From: Polyangia bacterium | GTDB taxonomy: Bacteria > Myxococcota_A > Polyangia > Palsa-1104 > JAEUJZ01 | DNA: 64,000 nucleotides | Assembly (NCBI GenBank): GCA_044228505.1 | Contig: JBGAUT010000016.1 | Span: forward strand, 43,387-107,386 | Direction: 5' to 3' | Shown: piece by piece, positions 7,786 to 37,484 of the stretch | How the letters are laid out: each line of letters opens with the position of its first letter | Position numbering within the stretch: position 1 is the stretch's first letter | The notes under the pieces: model-generated | Databases searched by the model: none | The model's input: the letters and a program-made list of their open reading frames with translations, nothing else | What the model was told of the DNA's origin: nothing | Program-made: the position numbers and the translations under genes

Positions 7786-8961
7786 GTGAGACTCTGGGGA
7801 CCATACAAGCCCACACCTCCTAAAACGCAGTGGCGACTGGTGATCTCGGAGCACGGCTCGCGACGCTCGGTCTGTTTCAATTCAGAAACCGAGGCACTGC
7901 ATTTTCGAGAGAATCTGCGGGCACAAGCGGCGGATCTTGCAACTCATTCGCTGACCGCAAGACAGGCGATTGAAGAGTACATCTCGGAAAAAGAGCGAGA
8001 GTGTGTGGCGGTCTCTGTGCTTACGGTGAGGGAACGCCTGATGCGATTCCTTCCGCTCGATACGCCGCTCCGTTACTTCGATGACGTGCTTGCTCAGCAG
8101 ATCTATGATCGCGAGGTCCAGCGGATTACCAAGCGAAGGAAGCCTGTGGCTGCCGCAACCCATCGCGCAACCCTTCGAACCACGAAAGAGTTTTGGCGAT
8201 GGTTGGTGATGCGGAAGTACGTGAATCACAATCCCTGGGCGCAGATTCTACCTGTAGGAAGACTGAATCATGGCAAGCCGCAGCCCACCATTGGCCAGGC
8301 GCAGAGGCTGGAGTCCTATTTGGTGGCTGGTGCGCAGGCGAATGAGGGCAAGCTGGCGCTGCTTCTGCAACTATATTGCGGACTCCGCAGCGGGGAAGTA
8401 TTGGCACTGAAGGTTCGAGACATCGAGCAGGTCGTCATTGCAGGAGAACGGGTGATCCAAGTCTGCGTCGACCGTGGAAAAACCAAGCATGCGCGGCGAG
8501 CGGCTCGCGTCGCACCCCGAGTCGGAGAACTCCTCATTGATTACATCAAGGGTCGACCAGCGGAGCAGAGAGTGTTTGCTGCCGATCGCTCCGCTCCGCC
8601 GAAAGGTGCATGGCTTCACAAGAGACTGGCTCTGATCTGTCAGGAGCTCGGATTGCCACAGTACTGTCCGCATAGCCTGCGCGGCCTCAACGCAACGATT
8701 GCGCTGGAGGGCGGTGCTACGATGGAAGCCATTGCCAAGGTTCTCGGTCATGGCAGCACTGCCGTGACGGCCAAGCACTATGCCAAGCCGGACAGCGTCT
8801 TAAATGCCAGCCTTCGAAGGGTTGCGGAAGTCCTGTCGAGTGCGTCTTCCTACGTGGAAGAGTCGGTGGTATCCGAAGAAGCGGCGGTGTCTGCGGTTGT
8901 GAGTTCGCTCAGTCCCGGTCAGCTCGCGCTGCTGCGCAAGGTAATCCTTCAGCACGGTTGA
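7786..8961 (+). CDS. site-specific tyrosine recombinase / phage-type integrase
   Basis: C-terminal catalytic domain with LRSGEVLAL (Arg), HSLRG (H-x-x-R), LGHGS (His) and HYAKP (Tyr nucleophile). Starts at GTG 7786. Confidence 0.75.
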   Translation: MRLWGPYKPTPPKTQWRLVISEHGSRRSVCFNSETEALHFRENLRAQAADLATHSLTARQAIEEYISEKERECVAVSVLTVRERLMRFLPLDTPLRYFDDVLAQQIYDREVQRITKRRKPVAAATHRATLRTTKEFWRWLVMRKYVNHNPWAQILPVGRLNHGKPQPTIGQAQRLESYLVAGAQANEGKLALLLQLYCGLRSGEVLALKVRDIEQVVIAGERVIQVCVDRGKTKHARRAARVAPRVGELLIDYIKGRPAEQRVFAADRSAPPKGAWLHKRLALICQELGLPQYCPHSLRGLNATIALEGGATMEAIAKVLGHGSTAVTAKHYAKPDSVLNASLRRVAEVLSSASSYVEESVVSEEAAVSAVVSSLSPGQLALLRKVILQHG

Positions 8962-9147: not shown

Positions 9148-9588
9148 ATGCAAGTCGAATCACCAGAAGCACGGACGTGGATCGGGCAGATCATCGGGAA
9201 CCATCGCCTGGTCCGTGTGCTGGGACGTGGCGGTATGGGAATGGTGTTCGAAGCGGTTCACGAGGGAGTGCTAGGGCGGGCAGCGATCAAGATTCTGCGT
9301 CCCGATGTCACCAGCCGAACGGATGTGACGACTCGCTTCTTCAATGAAGCCCGTGCTGCCAATGCCGTCCAGCATCCAGGCATTGTGCGCATCTTCGATT
9401 GTGGATTTACGGAGTCCGGGGTCGCCTATCTGTCGATGGAGTTCTTGGAAGGGGAGTCGCTTCGATCGCGACTGGCCAGGGTGAGGCAGCTACCCACCAA
9501 GACCGCGCTGCGAGTAGCACGTCAGATTGCCTCAGCGCTTGCAGCCGCGCATCGAGTGAAAATCATCCATCGAGATCTCAAACCCGAT
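9148..9588 (+). pseudogene. Hanks-type Ser/Thr protein kinase, N-terminal fragment (subdomains I-VIb) interrupted after HRDLKPD
   Basis: LGRGGMGMVF (Gly loop), AAIKIL (Lys), HPGIVRIF, SMEFLEGESL, IIHRDLKPD. The frame then reads 10 unrelated codons to a stop at 9621. Confidence 0.7.
9581..9588. repeat. 8-bp direct repeat AACCCGAT (left copy) flanking the insertion in the kinase gene
   Basis: An identical octamer recurs at 13847-13854, exactly where kinase homology resumes. Confidence 0.6.
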
Positions 9589-9754
9589 CATCTTCGCTTT
9601 CGTCTGGCGGCGTTGGGATAGGTTCCATTGTGCGAGTGATAGGGCAGGGAACAAAGTTCGGAAACGATCTGCGCGCTCTCGGTCTGGCACAATTGCGTAG
9701 AGGTCACCGATTGTGGCATCAAAGTACGGTACTAAACCAACGATGGAGACAAAG

Positions 9755-11218
9755 ATGAGTGACACCAAGAAGCTGACTACCGCAGCGGGGGCACCAGTTG
9801 TCGACAACCAGAACTCGATGACCGCCGGTCCGCGAGGACCTCTTTTGATGCAAGACATCTGGTTCCTGGAGAAGCTTGCGCATTTCGACCGCGAAGTGAT
9901 TCCAGAGCGTCGCATGCATGCCAAGGGGTCGAGTGCGTATGGATCATTTACCGTAACACACGACATCTCTAAGTACACCCGAGCGAAGATATTCGCTCAG
10001 GTTGGCAAGAAGACCGATCTGTTTGTTCGCTTCTCCACCGTCGCTGGAGAGCGAGGTGCTGCGGATGCAGAGCGCGACATTCGGGGCTTTGCGATCAAGT
10101 TCTATACCGAGGAAGGAAACTGGGATCTGGTTGGCAACAACACGCCGGTATTCTTCCTTCGTGACCCTCTCAAATTTCCAGACCTAAACCATGCGGTGAA
10201 GCGCGATCCGCGAACCAACTTGCGCAGTGCTCGCAACAATTGGGACTTCTGGACCTCGCTACCGGAGGCGCTGCACCAGATTACCATGACCATGAGTGAG
10301 CGAGGAATTCCCTATTCCTATCGACACATGCATGGATTTGGGAGTCACACCTTCAGCTTGATCAACTCCCAGAACGAGCGCTTCTGGGTGAAGTTCCATC
10401 TGCGGACGCAGCAAGGGATCAAGAATCTGTCTGATGCAGAGGCCGAGGCGATCATTGGCAAGGATCGCGAGAGTCACCAGCGAGATCTGTTTGACAGCAT
10501 TGAGAGACGGGACTTTCCTCGCTGGACGCTGTTCATTCAGGTGATGCCGGAACGGGAAGCCGCCACGTGTCCGTACAACCCGTTTGACCTTACCAAAGTC
10601 TGGCTGCACAAGGACTATCCGCTCATCGAAGTGGGCGTGATGGAGCTGAACCGCAATCCCGAAAACTACTTTGCAGAGGTTGAACAGTCGGCGTTCAATC
10701 CGGCGAACGTGGTGCCCGGAATCGGTTTTTCACCAGATAAGATGCTTCAGGGACGACTCTTTTCGTACGGCGATGCCCAGCGCTATCGGCTTGGGGTGAA
10801 TCATCAGTCCATTCCGGTGAATGCGCCTCGCTGTCCGGTCCATAGCTACCATCGTGATGGCGCGATGCGAGTCGATGGAAACTTCGGAGGTCAGCTTGGC
10901 TATGAACCGAATAGCTATGGACAGTGGCAACAGCAGCCGGGCTTTGCGGAACCTCCGCTCTCGCTGGAGGGGTCCGCAGATCACTGGAACCATCGTCAGG
11001 ATGAAGACTACTACTCCCAGCCAGGCTTGCTGTTCCGGCTCATGACGGGAAACCAGCAGCAGACACTGTTTGATAACACTGCGCGAGCGATGGGTGATGC
11101 ACCAAGAGAGATCAAGCTTCGTCACATCGGCAATTGTCTGAAGGCCGACCCCGCGTATGGAGCAGGTGTCGCAAAGGCACTCGGCCTGCCTCTGAGCGAA
11201 ACGCGCAGCTCATCCTAA
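9755..11218 (+). CDS. katA: monofunctional heme catalase (clade-3-like)
   Basis: [63 protein letters not shown] and the heme-ligand region [22 protein letters not shown] precedes ATG 9755; an in-frame ATG at 9713 is also possible. Confidence 0.85.
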
Positions 11219-11239
11219 CGCCCGTGGATCGACTCCGCA

Positions 11240-13699
11240 TCAACACTTGATCCGTTTCATATCGGGATCGTACAGCGGTCGCAGAGACGCGATCGCTGGA
11301 TAGCGCTGCCCGGCAATGTCTACTTCCCACATGCCTCGATCGAGATACTCTTGATCGAGCGCTTGTCCCGCTTCGATCATGGCCAATCCGACGGCTCCTC
11401 CGATGGTGAAGCCATACGAGGCGGCGCGAATGTATCCGACCGGGTGGCCGTTGCGGTAGACAATCTCAGCATGGAACATCAGTGGCTCCGGATCTTTCAC
11501 CAGCACTTGCACCAGGCGTCGCGTTAGCGGTCCTTCTGCTTTTTTGGCGAGCACTGCATCGCGTCCCAGAAATCCACCCGGCTTCTTTAGATCTACCGCA
11601 AAGCCAAGACCTGCCTCCAAGACCGAGTCGGTGTTGTCGATATCGTGACCATAATCACGGTATCCCTTTTCCATGCGCAAGCTGGCCAGCGCCTTGAGTC
11701 CGGCATGTCGTAAACCGAATTCTGATCCGGTTTCTACAATCCGATCATAGACATGGGGGGCTTGCTCGGAGGGGATGTAGAGTTCGTAGCCCAGCTCACC
11801 CAGATAGGTGATGCGGATACAGAGTGCCCGTGCAAAGCCGATGTCGATTTCGCGGGCGGTGCGGAATGGGAATGCCGTATTGCTAAGATCGGTGGTGGTC
11901 ACCCGTTGCAGCAGCTCTCGCGAGCGAGGTCCTTGAATGTTGATCTGCGCGTAGCCAGAGGTCACATCGGTTACAAAGGCGTGTGCGTGCGCCGGGACAT
12001 GGCGACGCATCCAGGTCTCTGCATGCCGATGAGCGGTGTCTGAGGCTACGACCCAGTATCGCTCATCATCGAGCTTGGTAACGGTCAGGTCCGCTTCGAG
12101 CGTGCCGCCCTCGTTGAGCCACTGCGTGTAGGTGATAAGCCCGCTTGGTCCGTCGACTTGGTTGGCCGACAGATAATTGAGAAGGGCTCCTGCGTCCCGA
12201 CCTTGCACCAAGAACTTCGCCATGAACGACATGTCCATCAAGATCACGCCTTCACGGGTCGCTTGATGCTCTGCTTGCCAGTAGGGAAACCAGTTCTGTC
12301 TGCCAAAGGACAATCGCTCGACCTTTGGCTCGATGCCAGGCGGCGCATACCAGTCCGGTCCTTCCCAACCACTGACGTCCTTAAAGTATGCGCCCTGCGC
12401 GGCCAGCCGATCATAGATGGCCGATCTCTTACAGCCGCGTGCGGTCTGCATGGAGCGCGTAGGATAGTGGCACTGATACACCATTCCAAGCGATTCCACC
12501 GTACGGGTGCGACGGTACTCCGGGTTCGACTGGTATGTGTGGAAGCGATCGATGTGCATGCCGGTGACATCACAGTCGGGTCGACCGTTGATGATCCAAT
12601 GGGCCAACACCCGTCCCATGCCACCACCCGTGATGATTCCGATCGAGTTGAGTCCGGCAGCCACAAAGTAGTTCTTTAGTTCTGGTGCTTCTCCGACCAC
12701 CGGACGCAGATCCGCGGTGAAGCTCTCCGGTCCGCAGAAGAATTTTTTGACTCCTGCATCTAGCGAGATGGGAATTCGCTCCATTGCCTTTTGCAGGTAT
12801 GGACCCATTCGCTCCCAGTCCGGACTGATCTCTCCAAAAGAAAAGTCGTCCGGAATACCACCGACTTTCCACGGAGCACAGACTGGCTCGAACAGACCGA
12901 CAAGCAGGCCGCCGACTTCCTCTCGATAGTATCCGTAGGAGCTGGGGTCTTCGAGAACCGGCAGAGAGGCGGTGAGCTGGGGGATCTTCTCTGTGATGAG
13001 ATAGTAGTGTTCTGCAGCCTGCAATGGAACGTTGACCCCGGCTTGGGCTCCGAGCTGACGTGCCCACATTCCGGCGCAGTTTACCACGTATTCTGCTTCG
13101 ATGTTTCCGTAGGGAGTCTGGACGCCAGTGACCACACCACGCTTGGATAGGAGTCCGATGGCAGGCACTCCTTCCAGGATGGTTGCACCTTGCATTCGGG
13201 CCCCTTTGGCAAGTGCCATTGTGATGTCAACGGGATTGGCACGGCCATCTTCCTTGACGTAGAAACCAGCCAAAATGTCGTCGGTGCGGGCCAATGGAAA
13301 GAGCTGTTCTACTTCCTTAGCGGAAATCTCATGGACATCCACTCCGCAGTGTCGATTGAACGCAGAGACACGCCGGTATTCCTCCAATCGGTCTTCATCC
13401 GCTGCGACTTCGATGAATCCGACCTGCTTGAATCCGGTCGATAGTCCAGTTTCTGCTTCGAGCCGCAGGTACAGATCGCGGGAGTACTTCCTCATCTCAG
13501 TCGATGTCTCAGAGGTCGAACCAAACGTCACGATGAGCCCTGCCGCATGCCAGGTCGTGCCAGAGGTGAGCCGATCCCGCTCGAGTACGACTACGTCCTT
13601 CCATCCCATGTGGGCCAGGTGGTATGCGACGGAGGTTCCGATGATTCCACCGCCAATGACGACAACGCGAGCGCGAGCAGGAAGGTTTGTGGGGTACAT
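11240..13699 (-). CDS. FAD-dependent oxidoreductase fused to a GcvT-like folate-binding domain: dimethylglycine/sarcosine dehydrogenase or dimethylglycine oxidase family (819 aa)
   Basis: N-terminal VVVIGGGIIGTSVAYHL Rossmann dinucleotide motif and TTWHAAGL (the covalent-FAD His region of this family). The C-terminal ~350 aa resemble the aminomethyltransferase (GcvT) fold. The size matches DMGDH/DMGO. Confidence 0.8.
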   Translation of the reverse strand: MYPTNLPARARVVVIGGGIIGTSVAYHLAHMGWKDVVVLERDRLTSGTTWHAAGLIVTFGSTSETSTEMRKYSRDLYLRLEAETGLSTGFKQVGFIEVAADEDRLEEYRRVSAFNRHCGVDVHEISAKEVEQLFPLARTDDILAGFYVKEDGRANPVDITMALAKGARMQGATILEGVPAIGLLSKRGVVTGVQTPYGNIEAEYVVNCAGMWARQLGAQAGVNVPLQAAEHYYLITEKIPQLTASLPVLEDPSSYGYYREEVGGLLVGLFEPVCAPWKVGGIPDDFSFGEISPDWERMGPYLQKAMERIPISLDAGVKKFFCGPESFTADLRPVVGEAPELKNYFVAAGLNSIGIITGGGMGRVLAHWIINGRPDCDVTGMHIDRFHTYQSNPEYRRTRTVESLGMVYQCHYPTRSMQTARGCKRSAIYDRLAAQGAYFKDVSGWEGPDWYAPPGIEPKVERLSFGRQNWFPYWQAEHQATREGVILMDMSFMAKFLVQGRDAGALLNYLSANQVDGPSGLITYTQWLNEGGTLEADLTVTKLDDERYWVVASDTAHRHAETWMRRHVPAHAHAFVTDVTSGYAQINIQGPRSRELLQRVTTTDLSNTAFPFRTAREIDIGFARALCIRITYLGELGYELYIPSEQAPHVYDRIVETGSEFGLRHAGLKALASLRMEKGYRDYGHDIDNTDSVLEAGLGFAVDLKKPGGFLGRDAVLAKKAEGPLTRRLVQVLVKDPEPLMFHAEIVYRNGHPVGYIRAASYGFTIGGAVGLAMIEAGQALDQEYLDRGMWEVDIAGQRYPAIASLRPLYDPDMKRIKC

Positions 13700-13846
13700 A
13701 AAAGGGAGAATAATCTCAGGAGACCTGTGCTCGGCAAGCCCTTGTGTCTGAGCACCGCACGAAGGAACCCATTCTTCCTTTCCCCGCTCATTCCTTGTTC
13801 CTCGTTCTCCGGAGATTTCTCGTCCAATCCTGCCGATTTGTGAGTC

Positions 13847-13854
13847 AACCCGAT
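13847..13854. repeat. 8-bp direct repeat AACCCGAT (right copy)
   Basis: Identical to 9581-9588; encodes the PD of HRDLKPDN in the resumed kinase frame. Confidence 0.6.
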
Positions 13855-15357
13855 AACATCATGCTGGTTCCTGACCAGGACTTCCCTGGTGGAGAGCGGG
13901 TTAAGATCCTCGACTTCGGAATTGCCAAGATGGCCGAGGGCTTAAGTGCTCAGCCACTTCGCACCAAGAGCGACGTACTCATGGGCACTCCGACCTATAT
14001 GGCACCGGAGCAGTGTCGTGGTGCGAAACTCGCGACCGACCGATCCGATGTGTATTCACTCGGGGTCATTTTGTATCAGATGCTTGCGGGGTATCCGCCA
14101 TTTTTGGGGGCCTCGATGGGCGACTTGATCGCGATGCATTTGATGGATGAGCCGCCACGACTAACGGACGCCGTGCCTGAGATCAGTCCCAAGATTGCAA
14201 AGCTCGCCTATGCGATGCTCGCCAAAAAGCCTGATTCTCGACCCTCGATGGAGAAGGCACAAAAGACGCTGCTCCGATTGGAAGAGGAAGCCCAACTGGC
14301 ACCGCCGCTACCGGCAGTGCAGCGAGACATCGAGACGTCGTACGGTGACTCTCAGCACGGCACTGTGGATGTTCCGGATGGGCATCCGAACAGGATTCCT
14401 GCGGATGCAAACGAGCTGAAGGTGCCAGTACCCAATCGGGAAGGAGCGACTGACAAACGTCCGTCGGAAATGAAAGCCGCAGGGTCCTCGCGTCCGTTGC
14501 CGAGCCGTATCGTAACAGACTCTCGTCACGTACATATTCCCAAGCGAACACTTCAAGTCATTATCGCGGCCTTCGTTGCCAGTACACTACTGGTGACGAC
14601 TGGGATTCTGCTGGGAACACAGGCCCGGCGTCCGATAGACCGCAGTGCACGCTCGGTTCTTCCGGAACCGGAACACAGAGACGATGTTCCAGCGTCCTCG
14701 GTTGCACCGCAATCGGCCAGACCAACACCGGAAGTCGCGGCCAGTAGGCCCATTCCAGCGATTCCAGGGGATGTCCCTCCTTCGAGCAAAGCAGACAAAG
14801 GGGGCGCTCCACATCGTGAGCCCACCTTGACCGCCAGCAAACATGTAGACAGCCCGAACGCGACAGGCAGCAAGGTTCATTCTAGTGGTGCGGCGATTGA
14901 AGAGAAGCCGGTCGCTATGGTTGAGGAGAAGCCGGTCAGTGTGGTGGAGCAAAAGCCCCCCACGCAGAGCCCGTCCTCGGTCAGTCCTGAGCAAGCTGTT
15001 CCGGCACAGCCTCCGACGGTGATTGCGCCTCCTCCTCAGGTTGCTCCCGTTCCTAGACCTGTTCCTGTGCCGGAGCGTACTGTCGATGATCCGTTTGATC
15101 CGCTGCGCACCGCAGAGGACTTCATCTTGCAAGGGAACTATCGTCGCGCAATGGATCTGGCCACGCAGTTTGGAAAGCAAGATCCGATGCGTGCTTGGGA
15201 AATCTACGGCCGTGCAGCGTGTGGGATGCGGCTGCAGGACCGGGCGAGTCGGGCGATGCGTGAACTGCAGCAGCGGCATGAAGACCGCCGCATTCAGTCT
15301 CTGCTCGCGTATTGCCGACTTCACAAGCTACCGCTATCTGCGCCTGACTCGCAGTAG
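13847..15357 (+). pseudogene. Ser/Thr protein kinase C-terminal fragment (subdomains VIb-XI) with Pro-rich linker, one TM helix and a small C-terminal helical domain
   Basis: PDNIMLV...ILDFGIAK...GTPTYMAPEQ...DVYSLGVILYQMLAGYPPF, then a P/A/S-rich region, the TM helix IIAAFVASTLLVTTGILLG, and a C-terminal TPR-like tail. The nearest in-frame upstream Met (13744) lies in non-kinase sequence. Confidence 0.65.
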
Positions 15358-15752: not shown

Positions 15753-17801
15753 CTAATGTCCTCGATGGACGATTCCCTGGCTGTGGGCAGTGTCTAGGAC
15801 CGAACAGATCTGGCGGGTCAGTGTAAGGACTCGTGCGATAGGCAGCGGTCGTGGCGCTTTGCCTTTCGGACTGATGATCTCATCGAGCGACTGCCCGTCG
15901 ATGAACTCCATCACCAAGTAGAACAAGGCACCACTCACATTGCCGTGATCGTAGATAAAGACGCTGTTTGGGTGATTGATTTGAGAGGATAGTTTGGCTT
16001 CCCGCTGAAACAGTTCGATGGCATCCGGGGCGACCATTGCTGACGGTGAGAGTACTTTGACCGCTGCTTCCCTGCCGAGCTCCGTGTGGCGAGCCTTGTA
16101 GACCATGCCCATCCCGCCTTCTCCCAGTCGGGCGTAGCAAGTGTACTGACCCACCGTGAAGGGATCGATCTCGCCTCTGCTGGACTTGGCTTCCTCGGCT
16201 TTGGTCGTGGGAAAGGTGTCGGCTTCGCTCCCAGCTCGCTGGGTCTTGGCATTCTGTAACACCAGCAGGCGGTCGCGCCGAATCACCCACAGCAGCAGAC
16301 CGGCACCCAGGGCCGCTGCCAGCGCGATGATGAGCAGTACGATTCCCAAGAACAGCTTCTTCTTGTCTGCGTGCGGAGCAGGTTGTTGCTGCGCCGTCTC
16401 GGGGGAAACGCTCCCGCCCCCGCCCGACCCAGGACTCGGGACCATGAGGCGGTTCTGCGTGGACTCAGCTTGAGCAGGTTCCGCTGGTGGCTCCACTTGA
16501 TCGGATTTTTGCTTTGATGACTCGGTGAGCTTGATGCGCTCATCGTCGTCGCGGCTGTCTGGACCAGGACCACGTACTCTCTGTTTCTTTCCTGCTTGTG
16601 CGGTGCTGGGCGCGGTCTTCGCGGGGGCCTTCTTCAGTTGTTTGGCTTCGGCAGGTACTTGCTTGTGCCCCGTGACCATCGGTCTCGGGGGCGCGGCGGC
16701 ACCAGGGGCGCTAGGGGCTCTCGGTGCTTCAGGGGGCGGGCTTTCGATGGCAAATGAATCAGTTTCGCCTGCGCGTGAAGGTGGTGCCGCACCTTGCTGG
16801 ACGGACGCGGCTTCTGCTCGTGGGCGCGCAGGGGCTCTCGTTGTGCTTTTGGGTTTGAACTTGCGTTTGATGGGTGCGGTGGTCTTTTCTTCTTCTGGTG
16901 CTGGCTGTGCTTTCTTGTCGGCGAGAGGCATCGCCTCCTCAGACGCCTTCCCGATAGGACGAGAAGCCTCCAGCGCGGGCGGCGGGGCTCCGGGTTGGAC
17001 TGCGGCGGGGGCACTGGCTTGCGGTGCGTGCTCGGGGCTGCTGCGCAGAAGCAGCAATGAGCCCGAGGCCAGCAGCAGCACCACCGCAACAAGCAGCGCC
17101 GCGACAGCAGATTTGCTCTTGCGGGCCTGCGCTGGCGAAGCTGGACCTTTTGAACCCTCCGCAAACGCTGAAGCCCGCATCGGAGAGCTCGGTACGGACC
17201 TGGCCGCGCTGTCCTCTTGTGATGCCGACGATGCAGCTGGGACCGCGTGCTGTGCGGTATCGAGCAGCTTTGCAACCAGCTCGTCCAACGATCGTGGTCG
17301 TGCGGCAGGTTGCTTATCGAGCGCATGCAATAGCGTCTGCGCAAGCTCGGCGGACAGCTCGGGTCGTAGGCTGCGCGGATTCTCGGGCCGCTCTAGCAGA
17401 ACCTTGATCCGGATGGCGGCGGGGCTGCTTCCGGCAAACGGAGGCTGTCCGGTTAGCAGATGGTAAGCGACCGCAGCGACGTGGTAGACCGTGCTCGCCA
17501 CTGCCTCGGGCTTGCCTGCAAAGACCTCTGGCGCGACGTAGGCTGCGACCAAATCGACAGATGGATCTTTGGCTGCCTCGGGCCCAGCAAGGGTGATGGC
17601 AGAAAGCTCACCGATGGATTCGTCCCCGGTCGCTGAGGTGACCAGTTTGACCTGCGATGGGTGAACAAGCCGTGCCTTGCCATCGGTAAGCTGCGATGAC
17701 AGCGTCTTACATAGCTCGCTGACCAGACGAAGTACACGCGGAATATCGTGACTTCCGGCCAGCGAAGCCATCGTTTGCGCTTCGCTTTCGCTGCTCGACA
17801 T
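15753..17801 (-). CDS. anomalous 682-aa ORF: degenerate kinase C-lobe (pseudokinase-like) at the N-terminus, Pro/Ala-rich region, one TM helix, then a canonical kinase N-lobe ending ...GIVHRGH-stop
   Basis: The C-terminal part reads LGEGGMGMVYKARH...AVKVL...HPNSV...VMEFIDGQSL...IVHRG then stop, and nothing kinase-like follows in any frame. The N-terminal part reads ARLVHPSQVKL (catalytic D, K and N all replaced), then YVAPEV and LLTGQPPFAG. A possible TM helix is LFLGIVLLIIALAAALGAGLLLWVI. Confidence 0.5.
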   Translation of the reverse strand: MSSSESEAQTMASLAGSHDIPRVLRLVSELCKTLSSQLTDGKARLVHPSQVKLVTSATGDESIGELSAITLAGPEAAKDPSVDLVAAYVAPEVFAGKPEAVASTVYHVAAVAYHLLTGQPPFAGSSPAAIRIKVLLERPENPRSLRPELSAELAQTLLHALDKQPAARPRSLDELVAKLLDTAQHAVPAASSASQEDSAARSVPSSPMRASAFAEGSKGPASPAQARKSKSAVAALLVAVVLLLASGSLLLLRSSPEHAPQASAPAAVQPGAPPPALEASRPIGKASEEAMPLADKKAQPAPEEEKTTAPIKRKFKPKSTTRAPARPRAEAASVQQGAAPPSRAGETDSFAIESPPPEAPRAPSAPGAAAPPRPMVTGHKQVPAEAKQLKKAPAKTAPSTAQAGKKQRVRGPGPDSRDDDERIKLTESSKQKSDQVEPPAEPAQAESTQNRLMVPSPGSGGGGSVSPETAQQQPAPHADKKKLFLGIVLLIIALAAALGAGLLLWVIRRDRLLVLQNAKTQRAGSEADTFPTTKAEEAKSSRGEIDPFTVGQYTCYARLGEGGMGMVYKARHTELGREAAVKVLSPSAMVAPDAIELFQREAKLSSQINHPNSVFIYDHGNVSGALFYLVMEFIDGQSLDEIISPKGKAPRPLPIARVLTLTRQICSVLDTAHSQGIVHRGH

Positions 17802-17882: not shown

Positions 17883-18821
17883 CTAGCTACGGCAGGGATT
17901 GCTGACTCTACCGCCCGGCGCAACAGAGTCCGTGACCCAGGTGTTGCCGCCGATGATTGCACCTCGGCCAATCACCGTCTCCCCTCCGAGGATCGTCGCG
18001 TTGGCGTAGATGAGGACATCGTCTTCGATGGTTGGGTGTCGCTTACGGTTCTGTTGCTGACGGGTCTTCCCGGTTGGTAGGCTCATCGCGCCGAGCGTCA
18101 CTCCCTGGTAGATGCGGACCCGGTTGCCGATGATGGATGTCTCACCGATGACGACTCCGGTTCCGTGGTCAATAAAGAAGGACTTACCGATTTTGGCACC
18201 CGGATGGATATCGATGCCGGTCTCGGTATGAGCCTGCTCGGTCATCATACGGGGCACAATCTGGGCTCCGAGGTGAAGCAAGGTGTGTGCAATTCGATAT
18301 GCAGTCACGGCCCGAACACCGGGATAGCACCAAGCGACCTCGATCAGACTTCGCGCAGCCGGATCACCCTCGAAGGCGGCCTGAACATCGAGCAGCACAT
18401 CGTTCCGCAGCGCGGGCACTCGGTTCAAGAACTTGCCGACGAGCCCTGTCGCTTCTTCTTGGCACTTGTCACACAGTGGTTGAGGTATCGGACAGCCGAC
18501 GTGTAGCCCTCGGCAGACCTGCTCGGTGAGCAGCACCCTGAGCGAGGCAATCCGGCCCTCCAACGAGGACCGTAGCATCGACGGTGCTGGACCTGGGCAT
18601 CCAGCCGAACCGGGCAGCATGAGTTCGCGCAGATTATCCAGTGCCGCAGATACTGCGATCCGCGATGGTAGCTCGTGTCCAGCGGTCAGTAGTACGCCAG
18701 TCTGTCGATAGGATGCGGCCAGCGCATCGGCCAGCTCGCAGTTTGACCGCGCAGCCTCCTCTGACTCTTGGGCAACCGAAGCTACCGACTCTGTTTGGGG
18801 AGAGGTTTGATCCATGTTCAT
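17883..18821 (-). CDS. cysE: serine O-acetyltransferase
   Basis: SATase N-terminal helical domain followed by left-handed beta-helix hexapeptide repeats: IHPGAKIGKSFFIDHGTGVVIGETSIIGNRVRIYQGVTLGA. Confidence 0.8.
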   Translation of the reverse strand: MNMDQTSPQTESVASVAQESEEAARSNCELADALAASYRQTGVLLTAGHELPSRIAVSAALDNLRELMLPGSAGCPGPAPSMLRSSLEGRIASLRVLLTEQVCRGLHVGCPIPQPLCDKCQEEATGLVGKFLNRVPALRNDVLLDVQAAFEGDPAARSLIEVAWCYPGVRAVTAYRIAHTLLHLGAQIVPRMMTEQAHTETGIDIHPGAKIGKSFFIDHGTGVVIGETSIIGNRVRIYQGVTLGAMSLPTGKTRQQQNRKRHPTIEDDVLIYANATILGGETVIGRGAIIGGNTWVTDSVAPGGRVSNPCRS

Positions 18822-18950: not shown

Positions 18951-19214
18951 TCAGTGCAGGTTTGGGAGCGCTGACCAAACCTGCGTCGAGAATACCACCA
19001 GCTTGGATACCAGATACGGACCAGTCACAAACAGGGCTACCATTCCCAATAGCAACCGCACGGCGACCGGCAGCGAGGAGTCCGTGATGCCCATCCGCGC
19101 TTGGAGCCACGACGTGACAACGGCGGATAGCACCGCGACCAGCAACACAGGTAGGCTGCACAGCACAGCCAGCCACAGACCCGATGACAGCAGCGGCAAT
19201 AGCGACTCGCTCAT
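18951..19214 (-). CDS. fliQ: type III secretion / flagellar export apparatus protein SctS (FliQ family)
   Basis: 87 aa with two TM helices. PVLLVAVLSAVVTSWLQARMGITDSSLPVAVRLLLGMVALFVTGPYL aligns with the FliQ core (LLVALVTGLIISILQAATQINEMTLSFIPKI...AGPWML). A 4-bp overlap with the upstream gene indicates coupling. Confidence 0.75.
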   Translation of the reverse strand: MSESLLPLLSSGLWLAVLCSLPVLLVAVLSAVVTSWLQARMGITDSSLPVAVRLLLGMVALFVTGPYLVSKLVVFSTQVWSALPNLH

Positions 19215-19864
19215 GAGTACCCCAGAAGCAGGCCGCGATACAGCAGCGTGAATCCATCGCAGACCAGGAACAGCAGCAGCTTAAACGGCAGCGTCACCGC
19301 CCGTACCGACAGCCCACCTAGCTGAAGTCCCGACAGTAGCAGAGCCGCCAGCAGATCGAGAACCAGGAAGGGAAGCAGCAGCACAAAGGCAAGCTGAAAC
19401 GCACGTCGCAGCTCTCCCAGCAGGAAAGCCGCCACCAGCACTGGCAGTTCATTTGGTTCAAGCGTCGCTCCGTGCCGCTGGGCCAGCTTCTGGGTCAGCG
19501 CCTCGACCTGCGCTTTGTCGCCAGCAGGTGTGTGCTCTATCAAAAACTGTCGAAGCGGAGCAGTGCCAACCTGAACCAAGTCTGCCGCCGTCGCTGTCGG
19601 CGGTGAGGTGTTCACCTCGGTAAGGCTGCGCTTGATAAGCGGAGACATGGACAGCGTTGCCAGCGTGAGTCCGAGCAACACAGTCACCAGCAGTGGTGGG
19701 ACTCCTCCTCCGAGACCTCGTCGGAGAACCTGCAGCACGATCGCAACTTTGACGTACGCGAGCAGCGATAGCAGCACAAACAGCAGCAGTGGTAGAAGCG
19801 TCCGTAACAGATCCGGCTGCGACAGCATTAACGCGTGGCTCCGTTTATGCCCGATTGTGGCCAC
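19211..19864 (-). CDS. fliP: type III secretion / flagellar export apparatus protein SctR (FliP family)
   Basis: LPFKLLLFLVCDGFTLLYRGLLLGY matches the FliP signature LPFKLMLFVLVDGWQLL; there are also a signal-like N-terminus and VLLLPFLVLDLLAALLLSGLQ. Starts at GTG. Confidence 0.8.
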   Translation of the reverse strand: MATIGHKRSHALMLSQPDLLRTLLPLLLFVLLSLLAYVKVAIVLQVLRRGLGGGVPPLLVTVLLGLTLATLSMSPLIKRSLTEVNTSPPTATAADLVQVGTAPLRQFLIEHTPAGDKAQVEALTQKLAQRHGATLEPNELPVLVAAFLLGELRRAFQLAFVLLLPFLVLDLLAALLLSGLQLGGLSVRAVTLPFKLLLFLVCDGFTLLYRGLLLGYS

Positions 19865-20250
19865 TTCGCGTCAAGGGATGGCCAGGCCGGTATCGTGACG
19901 CGCTCTGGTTCTGCGTGGTTCTCCTGGGTCGGTTCAAGCGCTGGCGGGTCCAGCTCACAAATCGTCGTCAATCCTTGAGGTGACGCACCAAGCAAAAGTG
20001 AGCGCGAGCCGACCTTCACCAGGAACAGCGAGTGACTTGCCGAAAGTCGTCGGTGCTCCACGACGTGGAGCAGCCCCTTAGTGGCTGACTGCTGAGTTCG
20101 TCGCCACAGCCACAGCACCGCAACCATGCCAAGCACCACGCAACAGGCGCGCCCGAGCAGTCCCAGCACATGCCAGGACTCCATCCCTGCGGCATCGGAA
20201 AGCTGAGCCAGCATACTTTGATGAGAAGCTAGTGACCCATCCGGTGTCAA
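19828..20250 (-). CDS. fliO: FliO-like protein (single-TM flagellar/T3SS export accessory)
   Basis: TM helix VVLGMVAVLWLWRR. LHVVEHRRLSASHSLFLVKVGSRSLLLGASPQGLTTICEL aligns with the E. coli FliO core LKISASASLGARERVVVVDVEDARLVLGVTAGQINLLHKL. Overlaps the fliP start by 37 bp; start codon uncertain. Confidence 0.5.
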   Translation of the reverse strand: MTPDGSLASHQSMLAQLSDAAGMESWHVLGLLGRACCVVLGMVAVLWLWRRTQQSATKGLLHVVEHRRLSASHSLFLVKVGSRSLLLGASPQGLTTICELDPPALEPTQENHAEPERVTIPAWPSLDAKWPQSGINGATR

Positions 20251-20305: not shown

Positions 20306-21112
20306 ATGATGCGGAAGCGCTGTCTGACAAGGTCCGTTTGGTTCAAGTGGATTCAGCCGATTGGTGCGGTGGTATTGGTCGGCTGTCTGAACTCGAACGG
20401 TGGTTACGTCGATGATCCCGGTTCGAATCGAGGCGCTCGAGATCTGTCGCTCGAGTCTCATCTCGATCTTTCGGTGGTTGATGCGGGATCAATGGATCTG
20501 GCTCAGCCGGGCGATCGTGATGCGGGTGTACGGGATGGTAGTGCTCGGAGCGACGCTGGTGCCATGCCGACCGATCCGTTCGACCCCGCGAGCTGTTCGG
20601 ATCCCGCTCTGTCTTCTGCGCAAGCCGTGACGATCCTCGGCATGAACACGCGCAGCAAGTTGGCCGATGCGACACTGTACCGGCGCACCCGCACCTGCAC
20701 CGGCATGTCTCCTCCCACCTGTGGAGCGTGGAGTTCACCGGTTCCACATACACAAGACCTCCTTACGTACTCGGGGGGGGTGACCACTGCCTATAAGAAC
20801 TTTGCCTTTCCAACCCACCTCATCCTGTTTTCGCAGGCTGGCACGCCCAAGTGGACCATCCGTCATGAGACGGACTATCGCCACGATGCAACCGCGAACA
20901 ATCGAGGCGTGGGCTTTTCGTTCGGTAGCGACCCAATGGTAAACACCTATCCGGTGATCTATGTGTGGGACTTTGCACCGGCACCAAATCGCTACGACGA
21001 CCTGCAAGGTTTACTGGGAGAGAAGGCTCAGCTACACGCTGCCGAGCACTGCGCACGAGTCGTGTTCACCAGCGGGATCACCACGGAAATTGCTGCCCTG
21101 TATACCTACTAG
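20306..21112 (+). CDS. hypothetical secreted lipoprotein
   Basis: Signal plus lipobox AVVLVGCLNS followed by a D/G/S-rich low-complexity stretch; no recognised domain. Confidence 0.5.
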   Translation: MMRKRCLTRSVWFKWIQPIGAVVLVGCLNSNGGYVDDPGSNRGARDLSLESHLDLSVVDAGSMDLAQPGDRDAGVRDGSARSDAGAMPTDPFDPASCSDPALSSAQAVTILGMNTRSKLADATLYRRTRTCTGMSPPTCGAWSSPVPHTQDLLTYSGGVTTAYKNFAFPTHLILFSQAGTPKWTIRHETDYRHDATANNRGVGFSFGSDPMVNTYPVIYVWDFAPAPNRYDDLQGLLGEKAQLHAAEHCARVVFTSGITTEIAALYTY

Positions 21113-21321: not shown

Positions 21322-21530
21322 GTTGGCAGGGGTATGGGCTGGGTATGGAAGGCACGGGCTGGCGGTTGGCTGGTACGGCTGGCGGGTTGGCAGGGGTGTG
21401 GGCTGGGTATGGAAGGCATGGGCTGGCGGTCGGTAGGGATGTGGGCTGGGTATGGAAGGCACGGCTGGTGGGTTGGCAGGGGTGTGGGCTGGGAATGAAA
21501 GGCACCGGGGGGTGGTTGCCAAGGGTAGAG
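21322..21530. repeat. 43-bp tandem repeat array, about 4.5 copies, intergenic
   Basis: The unit is GTTGGCAGGGGTRTGGGCTGGGTATGGAAGGCAYGGGCTGGCG, repeated with a few substitutions and one half-unit. The unit length is not a multiple of 3, and all frames are open across it. Confidence 0.8.
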
Positions 21531-21684
21531 GCCCAATCGGGAAGGCCATCGCCAGCAGTTGGAACAGCCTAGGTTGAATCTGAAACAGACCGGCTTGGGT
21601 CTTACGCCGTCGCGGCAGCCCGGGCTACCGAGTTGCGACTCCGGTGAAGCTGGGGATGTGCCGTGAGAGAGGAGACACTTGCGG

Positions 21685-27665: not shown

Positions 27666-28415
27666 ATGTCGTCGCCTCCTACTTCCGAACACACCTCTTC
27701 GTTTCCGTCGCCATCACCTGCTGAGGAGCTGTCGGCCACCCAGGCTCTGTGGCGCATTGCTCGGGCACTTCCTATCGTCGAGCGCAGCTACGCAATCATT
27801 CGCTTTATGATTTTGCGGGTGAAACTGCTGGCGACAATGGACCTGCTCCTGCCCGCAGAGGGTCCGATCCTGGACGTGGGCTGTGGTTTTGGATTGTGGT
27901 CCGCGTACTTTTCGCAGATGCAGCCGGGTCGTCGCATCATCGGGATTGATCCAAATGCACACCGCATCGCGATGGCCCAGAAGGTGGCGGAGAAGCTTGG
28001 AGTGAAGACCAAGTTTTTTGCTGAGGACGTTCGACAGACCGCAGCCAGGGGTCCATTCCGTGCGGTGTATTTGCTCGACGTACTACACCACATTCCGTCA
28101 GCGGATCAGGTTGAGGTGGTCAGTCAGTTGACCGACATGCTGGAGGAGGGGGGCACGCTGGTGATCAAAGACATCACCACCAAGCCGTGGCTGGGACTTA
28201 AGTTTACCGAGATCTTGGACCGAGCCATGGTTGGAATGAAAGAGGAGCTGGCCTATCGCCACCATAACGAGTGGAGCGAGCTGCTCCGCGACCTGGGCTA
28301 TTCCGTTCGTGTCGTCCGTGTTCCCGACGTACTGCCGTACCCGCACGTCATCATCGCTGCTACCAAGGGCAAGCGCCCCGTCGTTGCTTCGTCGCAGAGC
28401 GCCGTCCTGAATTAA
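27666..28415 (+). CDS. class I SAM-dependent methyltransferase
   Basis: ILDVGCGFGLWSAYF (motif I) and AVYLLDVLHHIP (motif post-I/II). Confidence 0.7.
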   Translation: MSSPPTSEHTSSFPSPSPAEELSATQALWRIARALPIVERSYAIIRFMILRVKLLATMDLLLPAEGPILDVGCGFGLWSAYFSQMQPGRRIIGIDPNAHRIAMAQKVAEKLGVKTKFFAEDVRQTAARGPFRAVYLLDVLHHIPSADQVEVVSQLTDMLEEGGTLVIKDITTKPWLGLKFTEILDRAMVGMKEELAYRHHNEWSELLRDLGYSVRVVRVPDVLPYPHVIIAATKGKRPVVASSQSAVLN

Positions 28416-28569
28416 GTTCCACCGTTTCCTTTCCGCCTCGTGCTCGCTTTTCAGACCGGTGGGTTGAGTAGCGTGCTGCGGGCGAAACTCCCTGCGTGTG
28501 CTTGCTGAGGCTGTCGGTTGGATCGCGAGCGTGTCGCTTGACAGCTCGCAGGGTGTAGGTCAGCCTTGT

Positions 28570-28599
28570 AAATGAATAGCCATTCATTTGGATGAATGG
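28570..28599. promoter_or_regulatory. candidate TetR operator: three ATGAAT/ATTCAT half-sites forming two overlapping palindromes
   Basis: The sequence is AAATGAATagccATTCATTtggATGAATGG. It lies immediately upstream of, and overlapping, the TetR start region. Confidence 0.5.
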
Positions 28600-29250
28600 C
28601 GCTTCAATGCGAGGCCGTCTGTGACCAGCAAGACCGATCCGATCCACGCCCAGCTTGTTGATGCGCGGCGGAACCAGATTCTCGATGCCGCAACCAAGGT
28701 GTTTGCGGACAAGGGATTCCATCTGGCTACGATTCGCGACATTGCCCGAACCGCAGGCATTGCCGACGGAACCATCTACAACTACTTCAAGAACAAGCCC
28801 GACCTGATGCTCGGCATCCTCAACCGGCTCAACGAAACGGAGCGTCGGGCGGTGGACTTGGCGCAGGGCATAAGTGGCGAGGTCAACGTACGGTCGTTCT
28901 TTGCCGGGTACCTGCGTCACCGGCTTTCGGTGCTAGACGCAGACTTGGCTACCTTCCAAGCTGTGCTGCCGGACCTACTGACCAACCCGGAGTTGCGCGA
29001 GCGCTATCTGCGGGAGGTGATCGAGCCGAGCTTTCGGCTGGCCGAGCCGCTATTCGAGCAGTGGATTGCGATCGGGGCGCTTCGGTCGGTGGATGCTGCG
29101 CTGGCGATGCGCACCGTGCCGAGCTTGGTGCTCGGTCTGATGGTGATGCGGATGCTCGGCGATCGCACCATTGAACAGCGCTGGGCGGAGCTACCGGAGT
29201 TTCTGACAGGGCTCATCTTCGACGGATTGAAGAAGGAGGAATGCCGATGA
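28588..29250 (+). CDS. TetR/AcrR family transcriptional regulator
   Basis: HTH region [43 protein letters not shown]. The start is uncertain: TTG 28588 or GTG 28621. Confidence 0.8.
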
Positions 29251-30494
29251 GTGCAGCGTTGGTTGACAAACAAGCAGAGAGATCCACCAGTCCGCTGATT
29301 GACATCACTCGGCCCGAGTTCAAGGCCAATCCCTTTCCGTACTACGCGAAGCTTCGCGACCGCGAGCCGGTATCACGGGCTCGGATGGGGCGGATGGAGG
29401 GCTGGCTGGTGACTCGTTACGATGATGTGCTGACTACTCTCAAAGACCCACGGTTTGGGAAAGACGTGCGGCGGGTACAGAACGCAGCGGAGCTTTCCAA
29501 GCGACCGTGGATGCCGGAGTTCTTGCGGGCGATGGAGTGCAACATGCTGGACCAAGACGACCCCAACCACGCCCGGTTGCGTGCCTTGGTCCATCGAGCG
29601 TTCACACCGGCACGAATCGAGCGTTTGAAGAGTCGAATCGTGACACTGGCCGGCGAGCTGCTCGATAAGGTACAGGCCCAAGGGGAGTTGGAGCTCATCC
29701 GAGACTTTGCACTGCCGCTGCCGCTGACCGTGATTGGTGAACTCCTTGGGGTGTCTGCGGAAGACAGAGTGCGGTTTCAGCGCCTTTCGCAAAACGCACT
29801 GTTGCCGCCGACGACGTTAAACATCGTCAGGATGCTCCCTGCGATGTGGCTGCTCATCCGGTATGTCCGCAAGCTGCTGGCGGAACGGTGTCAACACCCG
29901 CAAGACGATCTGTTGACCGCGCTGTCGCAAGCTGAGGAATCCGGAGATCGTTTGAGTGAGGATGAGCAGGTGGCGATGGTGCTGCTGCTGCTGATTGCCG
30001 GTCATGAAACGACGGTCAACTTGATCTCTTCGGGGATGCTGGCGCTTCTGCTACATCCAGAGCAGATGGAGTGGCTGCGGAGACGACCCGAGTCCATCCG
30101 GCCCGCCGTCGAAGAGCTGCTGCGCTACACCAATCCGGTGGAGACCGCTACGGAGCGGTATGCAGGAGAGGACATTTCGATGCACGGACAGACGATACGC
30201 TGCGGTGAGTTGGTATGGGCGGTGTTGGCTTCGGCAAACCGCGATCCATCGCATTTTGATCGACCTGATGAACTGAACCTGCAGCGGGAGCCAAACCGCC
30301 ACCTGGCGTTCGGTCATGGGAGCCACTTTTGTCTGGGTGCACCGCTGGCCCGGATGGAGGGTCAGATCGCGATCAACGCCATTCTGGAGCGGCTCCCCAA
30401 GCTTCGTTTGGCTGTTCCTGCCGAATCGCTCCGTTGGCGAGCAACGCCAGTGGTGCGGGGACTGGCATCGCTACCGCTGCAGTTTGGGCCGTGA
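29247..30494 (+). CDS. cytochrome P450
   Basis: Heme-binding loop [17 protein letters not shown], the EETTVN-like I-helix AGHETTVN, and EELLRY (the ExxR motif). GGAGG RBS upstream. Confidence 0.85.
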
Positions 30495-30510
30495 GTCTCT
30501 TTGCACAAGG

Positions 30511-31710
30511 CTAGCGGTAGTACAGCTCGCCAAAGATCTGCTTGTACTCGAAGTAAGCAAGGAATCCGTAGTCATCCGCCGCGCCGCTCATGGGGGAGGC
30601 CTGCGGGCAGCCGACACCGGTTGAGCCCTCCTTAAATGCAGCACTGGCGCAGCCGGTGTCTCCATCGAACTCGATGCCCCAGCCGGTGTTTCCTTTGCCG
30701 TTGCACGTTCCGTTGGTGTAGTAGAAGGCCTTGCAGCCCCCCTCTCCGCCGTTTCCACAGTATGTGCGAGTGCCGGTATTCAAGTAGGGGGCCCAGACCG
30801 CGCCGCTGGTCAGGCAAACGGTAGTTTTATTTAGGAGTGCCCCAAGGACCGCGTTGCTGGTGCTGTTGGTCGCGTTGAACTTCCAGGCCGCATACTGGTT
30901 GGCCGTTACGTCCTTGACGAGGAGTGCAGAGACCGCGCTGCCATCTGGAATCTTGGCAGAGCAGACATTCATTGCTGGGTCACACTGATCGAGCGTTTGA
31001 CCGAGCGGATCTTGTCCGCTCGGGAATGCTGCTCGGACCCAGTTGAAGCGGGTCCATCCGCCACCATCAAGGGTCATGTCGCAAACGACTGGGAAGTCGG
31101 CTTTGCCGGTGTTGTAGCCATCGGGATCGATGCGATAGGTACCGCTCGTCGTGCTGGGTTGGGCTTGCAGAAGCTCCAGACAGCTCACTGGGGGACGGCA
31201 GATGTAGCCGGCACAGACTCCATTTGCGCAGTCGGCGTTTCCACTGCACGTCTTACCAAAGCCGCACGGTCCGCAGCTACCACCGCAGTCGACATCAAGT
31301 TCGTTGCCGTTCTTGACGGCATCGGAGCAGCTTGCAGCCTGACAGACTCCGCTTTTGCAGACTCCGGATCGGCACTGCGTCGCTTCCGCACAGGTCTTGC
31401 CGTCGCTACATAGCCCGCAAGTTCCACCGCAGTCTGCGTCTACCTCGCTGCCGTTCTTGACGCCATCTGTGCAGCTCGCTGGCTGGCACTTCCCTGCGCT
31501 ACACACCCCGGAGCTGCAGTTGACGTTGGCAATTCCGCAGTTCTTGCCGTCAGAGCACTGGGCACATGGACCGCCACAGTCAATGTCGCTCTCTCCTTCA
31601 TTCAATAGGCCATCGATGCAGGACGGCGGAATCTCAACATTGACGTTTTCCGAAGAACAGGTGGCAGGTGTAAGTGCCAGCAGCACCCACAGCGATTGAT
31701 ATCGTTTCAT
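30511..31710 (-). CDS. secreted protein with four tandem Cys-rich repeats and a C-terminal fibrinogen-related domain (FReD)
   Basis: Signal peptide. Four repeats of C-x-DGVKNG-x-E-x-D-x-DCGG-x-CG-x-C-x-x-GK-x-C-...-C-x-SGVC-x-x-G-x-C. Then TSGTYRIDPDGYNTGKADFPVVCDMTLDGGGWT, the FReD signature. Confidence 0.7.
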   Translation of the reverse strand: MKRYQSLWVLLALTPATCSSENVNVEIPPSCIDGLLNEGESDIDCGGPCAQCSDGKNCGIANVNCSSGVCSAGKCQPASCTDGVKNGSEVDADCGGTCGLCSDGKTCAEATQCRSGVCKSGVCQAASCSDAVKNGNELDVDCGGSCGPCGFGKTCSGNADCANGVCAGYICRPPVSCLELLQAQPSTTSGTYRIDPDGYNTGKADFPVVCDMTLDGGGWTRFNWVRAAFPSGQDPLGQTLDQCDPAMNVCSAKIPDGSAVSALLVKDVTANQYAAWKFNATNSTSNAVLGALLNKTTVCLTSGAVWAPYLNTGTRTYCGNGGEGGCKAFYYTNGTCNGKGNTGWGIEFDGDTGCASAAFKEGSTGVGCPQASPMSGAADDYGFLAYFEYKQIFGELYYR

Positions 31711-31857
31711 GACAGTTCCCCCCTTGGAACACAGCTTATCATAGGCGATAATGTGTATTACCTATGCCTCTATTTCTGCGGCAACGGGGAGGAAGCAGGA
31801 AGAGGCGGACTGCACAATGAGTCAGGAGTGCAGCGTGCGGAACAGAATCCTCTGAAT

Positions 31858-32313: not shown

Positions 32314-32434
32314 CAGTAATTCGTTCCTTTCAGCGAGGTGAGACGTGACGCCGTACAAAAATATTTTCCGAGGCCACCCATGCCAAGCGGTTGACTTGCG
32401 GTGTTTGTATCCAAGCCTGCTACATGGGAGATTT

Positions 32435-32469
32435 CTAAATATTAGTCATGGTAGAGTGCTAATATTTAG
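32435..32469. promoter_or_regulatory. perfect 11-bp AT-rich inverted repeat CTAAATATTAG-N13-CTAATATTTAG
   Basis: An AT-rich island in a GC-rich region. It lies upstream of the KPEG-repeat gene and downstream of the esterase gene, so it is a candidate protein-binding site. Confidence 0.3.
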
Positions 32470-32570
32470 CTGCCTTGGATCGTGCGCGGTCTAGTAGATG
32501 CTTCCTCTGTTCGTGTCCGCGCATGAGTCATCGAGTGACATCGTCTTACATGACGGGCTGGAAGGGAAGC

Positions 32571-34256: not shown

Positions 34257-34266
34257 CAAGACCTCC

Positions 34267-37431: not shown

Positions 37432-37484
37432 AGGGGTTCCTTGTATTGCGAGCATCGGACAGCTACAAACGGGGCTCAACTGAC

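Follow-up and report, generated by a model that had tools for sequence, protein, structure and literature searches.

A putative stand-alone fliO-sctR-sctS export-gate operon from an uncultured Myxococcota bacterium

Introduction

The FliPQR (SctRST) export gate is considered to be obligately P5Q4R1 in composition and to function only when FlhB and FlhA are present. Here we describe an operon that encodes homologues of FliO, FliP (SctR) and FliQ (SctS) with no other type III secretion system (T3SS) component beside them. It lies at positions 18951-20250 of a 64,000-nucleotide stretch of DNA, called the window below, from a Polyangia bacterium (GenBank assembly GCA_044228505.1, contig JBGAUT010000016.1, forward-strand positions 43,387 to 107,386). 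A preliminary description of the window, made from its letters alone, had called the locus an orphan 'R5S4-type gate' and suggested that it might be a relic or the core of a minimal T3SS-like exporter.

The closest described systems come from the same phylum: the needle-less non-flagellar T3SSs (NF-T3SSs) of Myxococcota, known from 'Myxo' short and long loci and, in M. xanthus, as T3SS* (MXAN_2434-2464) and T3SS(2) (MXAN_5643-5654). In these loci the export apparatus is complete, and the genes for the ATPase, inner ring and rod are there too (PMC3459982; PMC10196010). A FliO homologue together with an SctR-sized FliP that lacks a signal peptide is reported to be the typical Myxococcota combination (PMC12248157). 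Our operon resembles these systems in pairing FliO with SctR and in the size of its FliP, and it shares a methionine-less gasket loop with complete loci of the Anaeromyxobacter type. It differs in holding O, P and Q only, and its FliP falls into a separate clade (99/100 bootstraps). The preliminary description found a gate surprising in a lineage regarded as non-flagellated. The lineage is indeed non-flagellated, but the surprise is tempered: Myxococcota were already known to possess needle-less NF-T3SSs, FliO included (PMC3459982, PMC12248157).

Two other groups of systems invite comparison. With the flagellar FliO-P-Q-R core (P5Q4R1) and the FliO-scaffolded FliP6 ring, the operon shares the order fliO-fliP-fliQ, translational coupling, fold, gate residues and the salt-bridge pair of FliQ. 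Unlike the flagellar core, it has no FliR, FlhB, FlhA or basal-body genes and no FliP signal peptide, its products score far below the equivalog cutoffs, and its host lineage is non-flagellated. Lysobacter enzymogenes OH11 likewise has T3SS export genes in a non-flagellated predatory soil bacterium, and there the remnants, which resemble a flagellar T3SS (FT3SS), are functional (PMC7277350). Lysobacter, however, keeps FlhA, FlhB, FliI and FliR along with FliP and FliQ, and its phenotypes map to FlhA, FlhB, FliI and FliR, whereas the window keeps only FliO, FliP and FliQ.

FliO homologues are also known outside flagellar loci, in a five-gene operon of Chlamydiia and as singletons in Rhizobiales. 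These too lie outside any recognisable flagellar or injectisome locus, and the text consulted mentions no pairing of them with FliP and FliQ (PMC12248157). Synteny of sctS and sctT is thought to aid gate assembly, according to a preprint (bioRxiv 10.64898/2026.02.19.706803). In the papers that could be searched, no description of a module made of O, P and Q only, with or without R, was found.

What could an export gate be without its R subunit? We favour, with a probability of roughly 45%, the reading that the three genes form a working stand-alone fliO-sctR-sctS operon, carried by an uncultured member of the Myxococcota and belonging to a distinct clade of orphan export gates. Judging from gene content and phylogeny, the clade appears to have been fliO-P-Q-R ancestrally, with sctT (fliR) lost in the sublineage that includes the window.

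Results

The three genes lie on the minus strand and overlap. The fliO homologue (19828-20214) encodes 128 amino acids (aa) from the start called on near-identical contigs; read from a TTG at 20250 instead, it would encode 140 aa (19828-20250). The fliP/sctR homologue (19211-19828) encodes 205 aa from the ATG used by gene callers, or 217 aa from a GTG at 19864, and fliQ/sctS (18951-19214) encodes 87 aa with two transmembrane (TM) helices. Six near-identical contigs carry FliO called as a 128-aa protein with PF04347. An exact-sequence look-up with the GTG-start FliP returned no match, while the same look-up with FliQ did. At the fliO/fliP junction the overlap reads TAATG and at the fliP/fliQ junction ATGA, the fliQ start lying over the fliP stop; fliO, fliP and fliQ are translationally coupled. 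The preliminary description took frameshifts in fliP or fliQ as the mark of a decaying relic. All three genes read through without a frameshift or an internal stop, so decay is not indicated.

The gene identities given in the preliminary description stand, as all three products exceed the Pfam gathering thresholds (GA). FliO scores 46.9 bits against PF04347 (GA 22); its single hydrophobic segment (aa 14-38) forms an N-terminal TM helix, followed by the FliO core. FliP reaches 116.4 bits against PF00813 (E 2e-33, GA 26.9) over profile positions 3-191 of 191, and FliQ 44.7 bits against PF01313 (Bac_export_3; GA 25) over positions 4-73 of 74. The stricter NCBIfam models give a different picture. 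FliO fails TIGR03500 (43.4 bits, cutoff 55.25). FliP stays below the flagellar (TIGR01103) and injectisome (TIGR01102, NF009438) equivalog cutoffs, with scores of 97.6 against 217.45, 108.7 against 208.6 and 122.7 against 179; the last, EscR/YscR, is its best NCBIfam match. FliQ misses its equivalog cutoffs as well (42.5 against 88.9; 42.2 against 76.5).

FliP is SctR-sized, with four hydrophobic helices and no signal-peptide extension. A phmmer search of the PDB matched it to FliP and SpaP chains at E ~1e-19. Alignment to the solved chains shows that the charged gate residues are retained: the E in GELRRAF (Salmonella E178), the D in PFLVLDL, and the K and D in LPFKLLLFLVCDGF. Foldseek pairs an AlphaFold2 model built from the clade alignment (pLDDT 81, pTM 0.70) with FliP and SpaP chains from export gates of known structure, at probability 1.00 and TM-scores of 0.70-0.76; the predicted structure has the FliP/SctR fold of two helical hairpins and a periplasmic helical domain. 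FliQ aligns over its full length to FliQ from FliPQR complexes of known structure and keeps the acidic/basic pair of Salmonella positions E46/K54 in the form D/R.

One element of the gate is missing. The Met-rich gasket loop (GMMM or GMxM before LPFK) is absent from FliP, which has LQLGGL in its place, and the clade as a whole has LxLxGL. We considered this loss as a sign of altered gating and dropped the idea: complete Anaeromyxobacter-type loci are also Met-less here (GLTQL), so the Met-less gasket is a Myxococcota trait and no mark of the orphan state.

Are other T3SS genes encoded nearby? Pfam scans of ~47 open reading frames (ORFs) of the window detected no T3SS component besides fliO, fliP and fliQ. 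We also built iterated hidden Markov models (HMMs) for FliO, FliP, FliQ, FliR, FlhB, FlhA, FliI and FliG from canonical loci. Among all window ORFs of at least 50 aa only fliO, fliP and fliQ matched; the models for FliR, FlhB, FlhA, FliI and FliG found nothing at E <= 1e-3. As a positive control, the same HMMs readily detect FlhB, FlhA, FliI and FliG in flagellar and Anaeromyxobacter-type loci. The 44 kb of window to the right of the operon hold no T3SS genes. On the left, a contig that shares the window's CheR extends the sequence by 7.5 kb beyond the window edge, where it holds a Che operon and no T3SS gene. A complete export apparatus, with SctT/FliR, SctU/FlhB and SctV/FlhA alongside SctR and SctS, is not encoded in the window plus this extension. 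The orphan status claimed in the preliminary description thus holds within the window, and the alternative it raised, an ordinary split locus continuing just outside, is not borne out by the flanks covered, 7.5 kb beyond the left edge and 44 kb inside the window on the right. Its 'R5S4-type' label is doubtful, because the canonical R5S4 assembly requires one SctT and this locus encodes none.

The operon has many relatives, all of them in metagenome-assembled genomes (MAGs) or on metagenome contigs, many of which are short; their loci (numbered with the prefix L) were covered for up to 10 kb on each side. An identical FliQ occurs on 22 short metagenome contigs whose genes are arranged alike: a 268-aa ORF and, divergently, FliO-FliP-FliQ-serine acetyltransferase-kinase. 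A protein search with FliP gave ~50 clusters at 44-100% identity, all of 195-230 aa; past these, identity falls to <=40%, to canonical SctR/FliP. The closest loci in scans of a one-genome-per-species collection and of JGI metagenomes (best FliP identity 94%) are labelled uncultured Myxococcales, Polyangia or Myxococcota, and a few 'Pseudomonadota bacterium', in agreement with the Myxococcota origin first suggested from the sequence signature. MAGs with clade members are CALLYL01 (SRR5676476_bin.50), DAORGN01, DAORCZ01, CAYWPR01, CALFML01, JAXLYE01 (STL-MYX5), JANWXW01 (GCA_025057315.1) and JAVQWY01 (GCA_033578775.1), and contigs of this kind come from samples such as SRR2308827 (activated sludge), ERZ27257534, DRR545331 and SRR35242006-12.

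The arrangement is kept down to ~45% FliP identity. When all ORFs were searched with the HMMs, fliO-P-Q only was found in the window and in L001-L006, L012, L098, L100, L097, L099, L013, L007-L009, L096 and L052. Five further loci or pairs of loci have fliO-P-Q-R (L010/L011, L014, L021, L071, L101), and L177, which is cut at its upstream end, shows P-Q-R. FliR, present in basal members, is the only additional export-apparatus gene around any clade member: FlhB, FlhA, FliI and FliG are absent within the distances covered, and the module is never found beside sctU, sctV or an ATPase gene. Where present, FliR is the fastest-evolving member, with 32-35% identity against ~45-55% for FliP in the same genomes.

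In a neighbour-joining tree of 83 FliP sequences (216 columns, 100 bootstraps) the orphan clade sits on its own long branch and is monophyletic in 99/100 replicates. The R-less subclade containing the window is recovered in 100/100. L052, which also lacks FliR, joins that subclade in only 4/100, so the tree suggests that FliR was probably lost at least twice. The preliminary description had proposed a phylogeny of the gate proteins, flagellar against NF-T3SS. Carried out on FliP, it does reveal a distinct clade; it also places the window's FliP outside the clade of complete Anaeromyxobacter-type loci. The window therefore does not group with the Myxo NF-T3SSs, and its locus lacks their content of export apparatus, ATPase, SctJ and inner rod.

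Selection has continued to act on the operon since FliR was lost. We estimated the ratio of nonsynonymous to synonymous substitution rates (dN/dS) between the window and its R-less relatives L012, L100, L099, L097 and L013. The ratio is 0.09-0.21 for FliP (0.30 against L013, where dS is near saturation), 0.07-0.21 for FliQ and 0.21-0.34 for FliO (0.50 against L013); the neighbouring cysE and radical-SAM genes give 0.04-0.09. The genes fliO, fliP and fliQ are constrained by purifying selection after the loss of FliR, and a decaying relic is therefore ruled out.

Pairs of fliO and fliP occur in many other Myxococcota MAGs (L016, L017, L020, L022, L024, L025, L027, L033, L047, L051, L056, L058, L068, L069 and L078), among them a 9.5-Mb single-contig MAG (L017). 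No fliQ, fliR, flhB or flhA is detectable within up to 10 kb of these pairs, which adjoin housekeeping-looking genes (CCG/4Fe-4S oxidoreductase, PLD-family enzyme, nitrilase). They do not form one clade (5/100 bootstraps). Orphan gate fragments seem to be widespread in Myxococcota. A search with the FliP of L078 for a link to a cultured Myxococcus returned close matches from metagenomes or MAGs in every case, and a literature search on the STL-MYX MAGs found nothing.

On both sides the operon is bounded as first described, by cysE and by a divergent lipoprotein gene. Downstream, after a gap of 129 nucleotides (nt) with no terminator-like site, lies a serine O-acetyltransferase gene of the CysE/EpsC type (17883-18821, minus strand; NCBIfam EpsC 150.6 bits, cutoff 150; cysE 166.5 bits, below the cutoff of 210.65), which is possibly co-transcribed with fliOPQ. 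It stands between fliQ and the kinase gene only in the closest lineages of the window (L001-L006, L012, L097, L098 and L099) and not in L013 or L007-L009. Upstream, a 268-aa ORF (20306-21112, plus strand) with a lipobox-like LVGC encodes a putative lipoprotein. It has no Pfam or NCBIfam match and no TM segment outside the signal region, and it is present in close relatives only (L001-L006, L098, L100), not in L099, L013 or L007. We rejected it as an SctJ-like ring protein on account of the missing family match, the missing C-terminal TM segment and its poor conservation beyond close relatives; it is probably unrelated to the gate module. In the ~570-nt gap between this gene and a radical-SAM gene lies a tandem array (21375-21546) of ~3.5 copies of a 43-nt G-rich unit, or two copies of 86 nt.

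The next gene downstream encodes a Ser/Thr protein kinase (15753-17801, minus strand, 682 aa, ending ...IVHRGH*) that matches Pfam Pkinase at positions 2-122 only. An orthologous kinase follows fliQ, or fliQ-cysE, in the R-less sublineage (L001, L097, L099, L013, L007-L009). Where the kinase is intact (L001, L009, L099; 831 aa in L001 and L099), a methyl-accepting chemotaxis protein (MCP), a 72-aa ORF and a FIST gene come next. The kinase after fliQ in L096 is not orthologous. L097 and L099 carry a radical-SAM gene upstream, and in L010/L011 the gene before fliO encodes a PilZ protein. Comparison of the loci revealed no further neighbour common to the whole clade.

The kinase gene of the window is cut at its HRD catalytic-loop codon, at junction 15761 (within 15753-15779). 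L001 is 99.8% identical to the window over 22965-15761, and L001 and L099 continue into the 831-aa kinase, the MCP and FIST; the window and L012 run past the junction into unrelated DNA. In a distant lineage this polymorphism recurs no more than 2 nt from that codon: L009 is intact and L007 and L008 are truncated. L007 is 100% identical to L009 over 13,147 nt, and both derive from one run. Contigs L002, L003, L006 and L097 end at the junction site. The pattern resembles site-specific rearrangement that recurs within the kinase gene, or a hotspot there for integration or inversion. The window holds no second, inverted copy of the junction sequence.

A second Ser/Thr kinase (9148-9621 plus 13744-15357) is split at HRDLKPD by a 4.26-kb segment (~9589-13846) that carries a catalase gene (9713-11218) and a dimethylglycine-dehydrogenase-like gene (11240-13699, minus strand) and is flanked by an 8-bp direct repeat, AACCCGAT. 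MAG contig L012 has an intact, insert-free version of 659 aa, and contig L092 stops at that point. A tyrosine recombinase gene (7786-8961) lies just upstream of the split kinase.

By Pfam, the window also holds chemotaxis genes, several Ser/Thr kinases, the catalase and dimethylglycine-dehydrogenase-like enzyme, radical-SAM proteins, GyrA, a class A penicillin-binding protein, HemN and permeases; neither an Rfam nor a tRNA scan gave a match in the window. Among close relatives (the window, L099 and L012) the region forms a mosaic. Compared with the colinear L099, the window has an extra TetR regulator, P450, Cys-rich fibrinogen-like protein and esterase of the polyhydroxybutyrate-depolymerase type at ~28400-34270, and a DUF6178 gene (5727-7073) is missing from L012. 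Two minus-strand ORFs (34267-35997 and 36016-37671) are kept at ~80% nt identity in L099 and match no Pfam, NCBIfam or T3SS HMM; one product has 576 aa, with a signal peptide followed by an N-terminus rich in Pro, and by eye resembles a porin, and the other is a polytopic membrane protein of ~470-550 aa.

Discussion

How might such an operon work? Translated as one coupled unit, its products could assemble in the inner membrane, where single-pass FliO would scaffold the oligomerisation of the SctR-like FliP and the FliQ hairpins would join the FliP oligomer in a helical, gate-like assembly. A sixth FliP unit, with or without FliQ, would probably fill the place of the single FliR, because rings of FliP and FliO form without FliR and because FliR reportedly resembles a FliP-FliQ fusion in the FliPQR structure. 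The rings in question are homohexamers formed by Salmonella FliP and FliO in vitro (PMC5542437). The outcome would be a pore, or the core of a gate, in the inner membrane, which may act by itself or serve partners encoded far away.

Several considerations weigh against a functional stand-alone operon. The characterised FliPQR complex needs FliR, FlhB and FlhA for any export, and a complex without R, U and V has no precedent of demonstrated activity. The FliP6 ring seen in vitro is said to have been superseded by P5Q4R1 as the physiological form. A stoichiometry of 5:4:1:1:9 is quoted in PMC6456723. Genes for SctT, SctU, SctV and SctN may lie elsewhere in the genome; every relative is a MAG or metagenome contig. 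Finally, the dN/dS values of FliP and FliQ are two to three times those of their housekeeping neighbours.

The missing partners lead directly to another explanation, which we find quite conceivable: that an otherwise canonical needle-less T3SS is dispersed over the genome. The operon would supply SctR, SctS and the FliO chaperone, with SctT, SctU, SctV, the ATPase and the ring proteins at distant loci, as in Chlamydia and the scattered loci of Abby and Rocha. Myxococcota show a graded series of gene contents (OPQRBA, OPQRB with FlhA not nearby, OPQR and OP), so T3SS genes are often separated in this phylum; scattered functional NF-T3SS loci are documented (PMC3459982), and the gate residues are conserved as though gate-like work continues. 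Yet across more than 10 independent lineages of the orphan clade, U, V and N genes are all missing from the sequence covered, up to 10 kb, and the FliP of these lineages forms a separate long branch and is not nested among complete Myxococcota loci. FliR is poorly conserved in the lineages that have it, and its probable loss on at least two occasions also speaks against a hidden complete system. A profile search with the clade's FliR returned 6 proteins, with no stand-alone FliR among them, by a word-index method too insensitive to establish absence.

The same series, read as OPQRBA > OPQRB > OPQR > OPQ > OP, looks reductive, which together with the wide margin by which the NCBIfam cutoffs are missed and the fairly fast evolution of FliO (dN/dS up to 0.34) might suggest that the operon is what remains of a lost T3SS or flagellum, no longer functional and in the process of being deleted. 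We consider this very improbable, and the relic option of the preliminary description is largely refuted: the genes are intact and cover their Pfam profiles in full, the stop and start codons still overlap, comparisons of genomes already without FliR give dN/dS well below 1, and the module is kept at divergences where dS is saturated (window against L007). The products of the operon could also serve something other than protein export, for example as a regulated ion or small-molecule conduit or as a membrane-remodelling platform tied to the kinase, MCP and FIST genes, with analogues in the proposed CORE nanotube platform and in the FT3SS remnants that control twitching in Lysobacter. The orthologous kinase directly after fliQ or fliQ-cysE, the MCP, 72-aa ORF and FIST that follow it where intact, the non-orthologous kinase at that position in L096, and the PilZ gene of L010/L011 would suit such a role, and non-export roles are reported for T3SS core proteins (PMC6456723, PMC7277350). 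We nevertheless judge repurposing decidedly unlikely. Adjacency alone is weak in kinase-rich Myxococcota, and the window's own kinase is truncated while fliOPQ is intact; moreover, the reported non-export roles all belong to FlhA or FlhB, and fliP and fliQ are dispensable in Lysobacter (PMC7277350).

A stand-alone operon that functions as a gate can be carried one step further, to a claim that we think unlikely. The clade might encode a minimal, self-sufficient membrane machine in which FliO assembles a P6Q6-like homo-oligomer of FliP and FliQ into a gated conduit, without FliR, FlhB or FlhA and possibly under the control of the kinase, MCP and FIST proteins. If this were true, the conduit would be a present-day counterpart of the ancestral gate presumed to predate FliR.

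If the missing genes prove to lie at other sites of the genome, what remains is a needle-less T3SS broken into unusually scattered pieces. FliO, FliP and FliQ kept under selection after the loss of FliR, with no FlhB or FlhA nearby, amount to a natural experiment on the export gate. Such an experiment might reveal which gate components are able to do without the others, how gate assembly is nucleated and what form the gate took before FliR. The operon and its relatives extend the known reductive diversity of T3SS-derived systems in the predatory Myxococcota.

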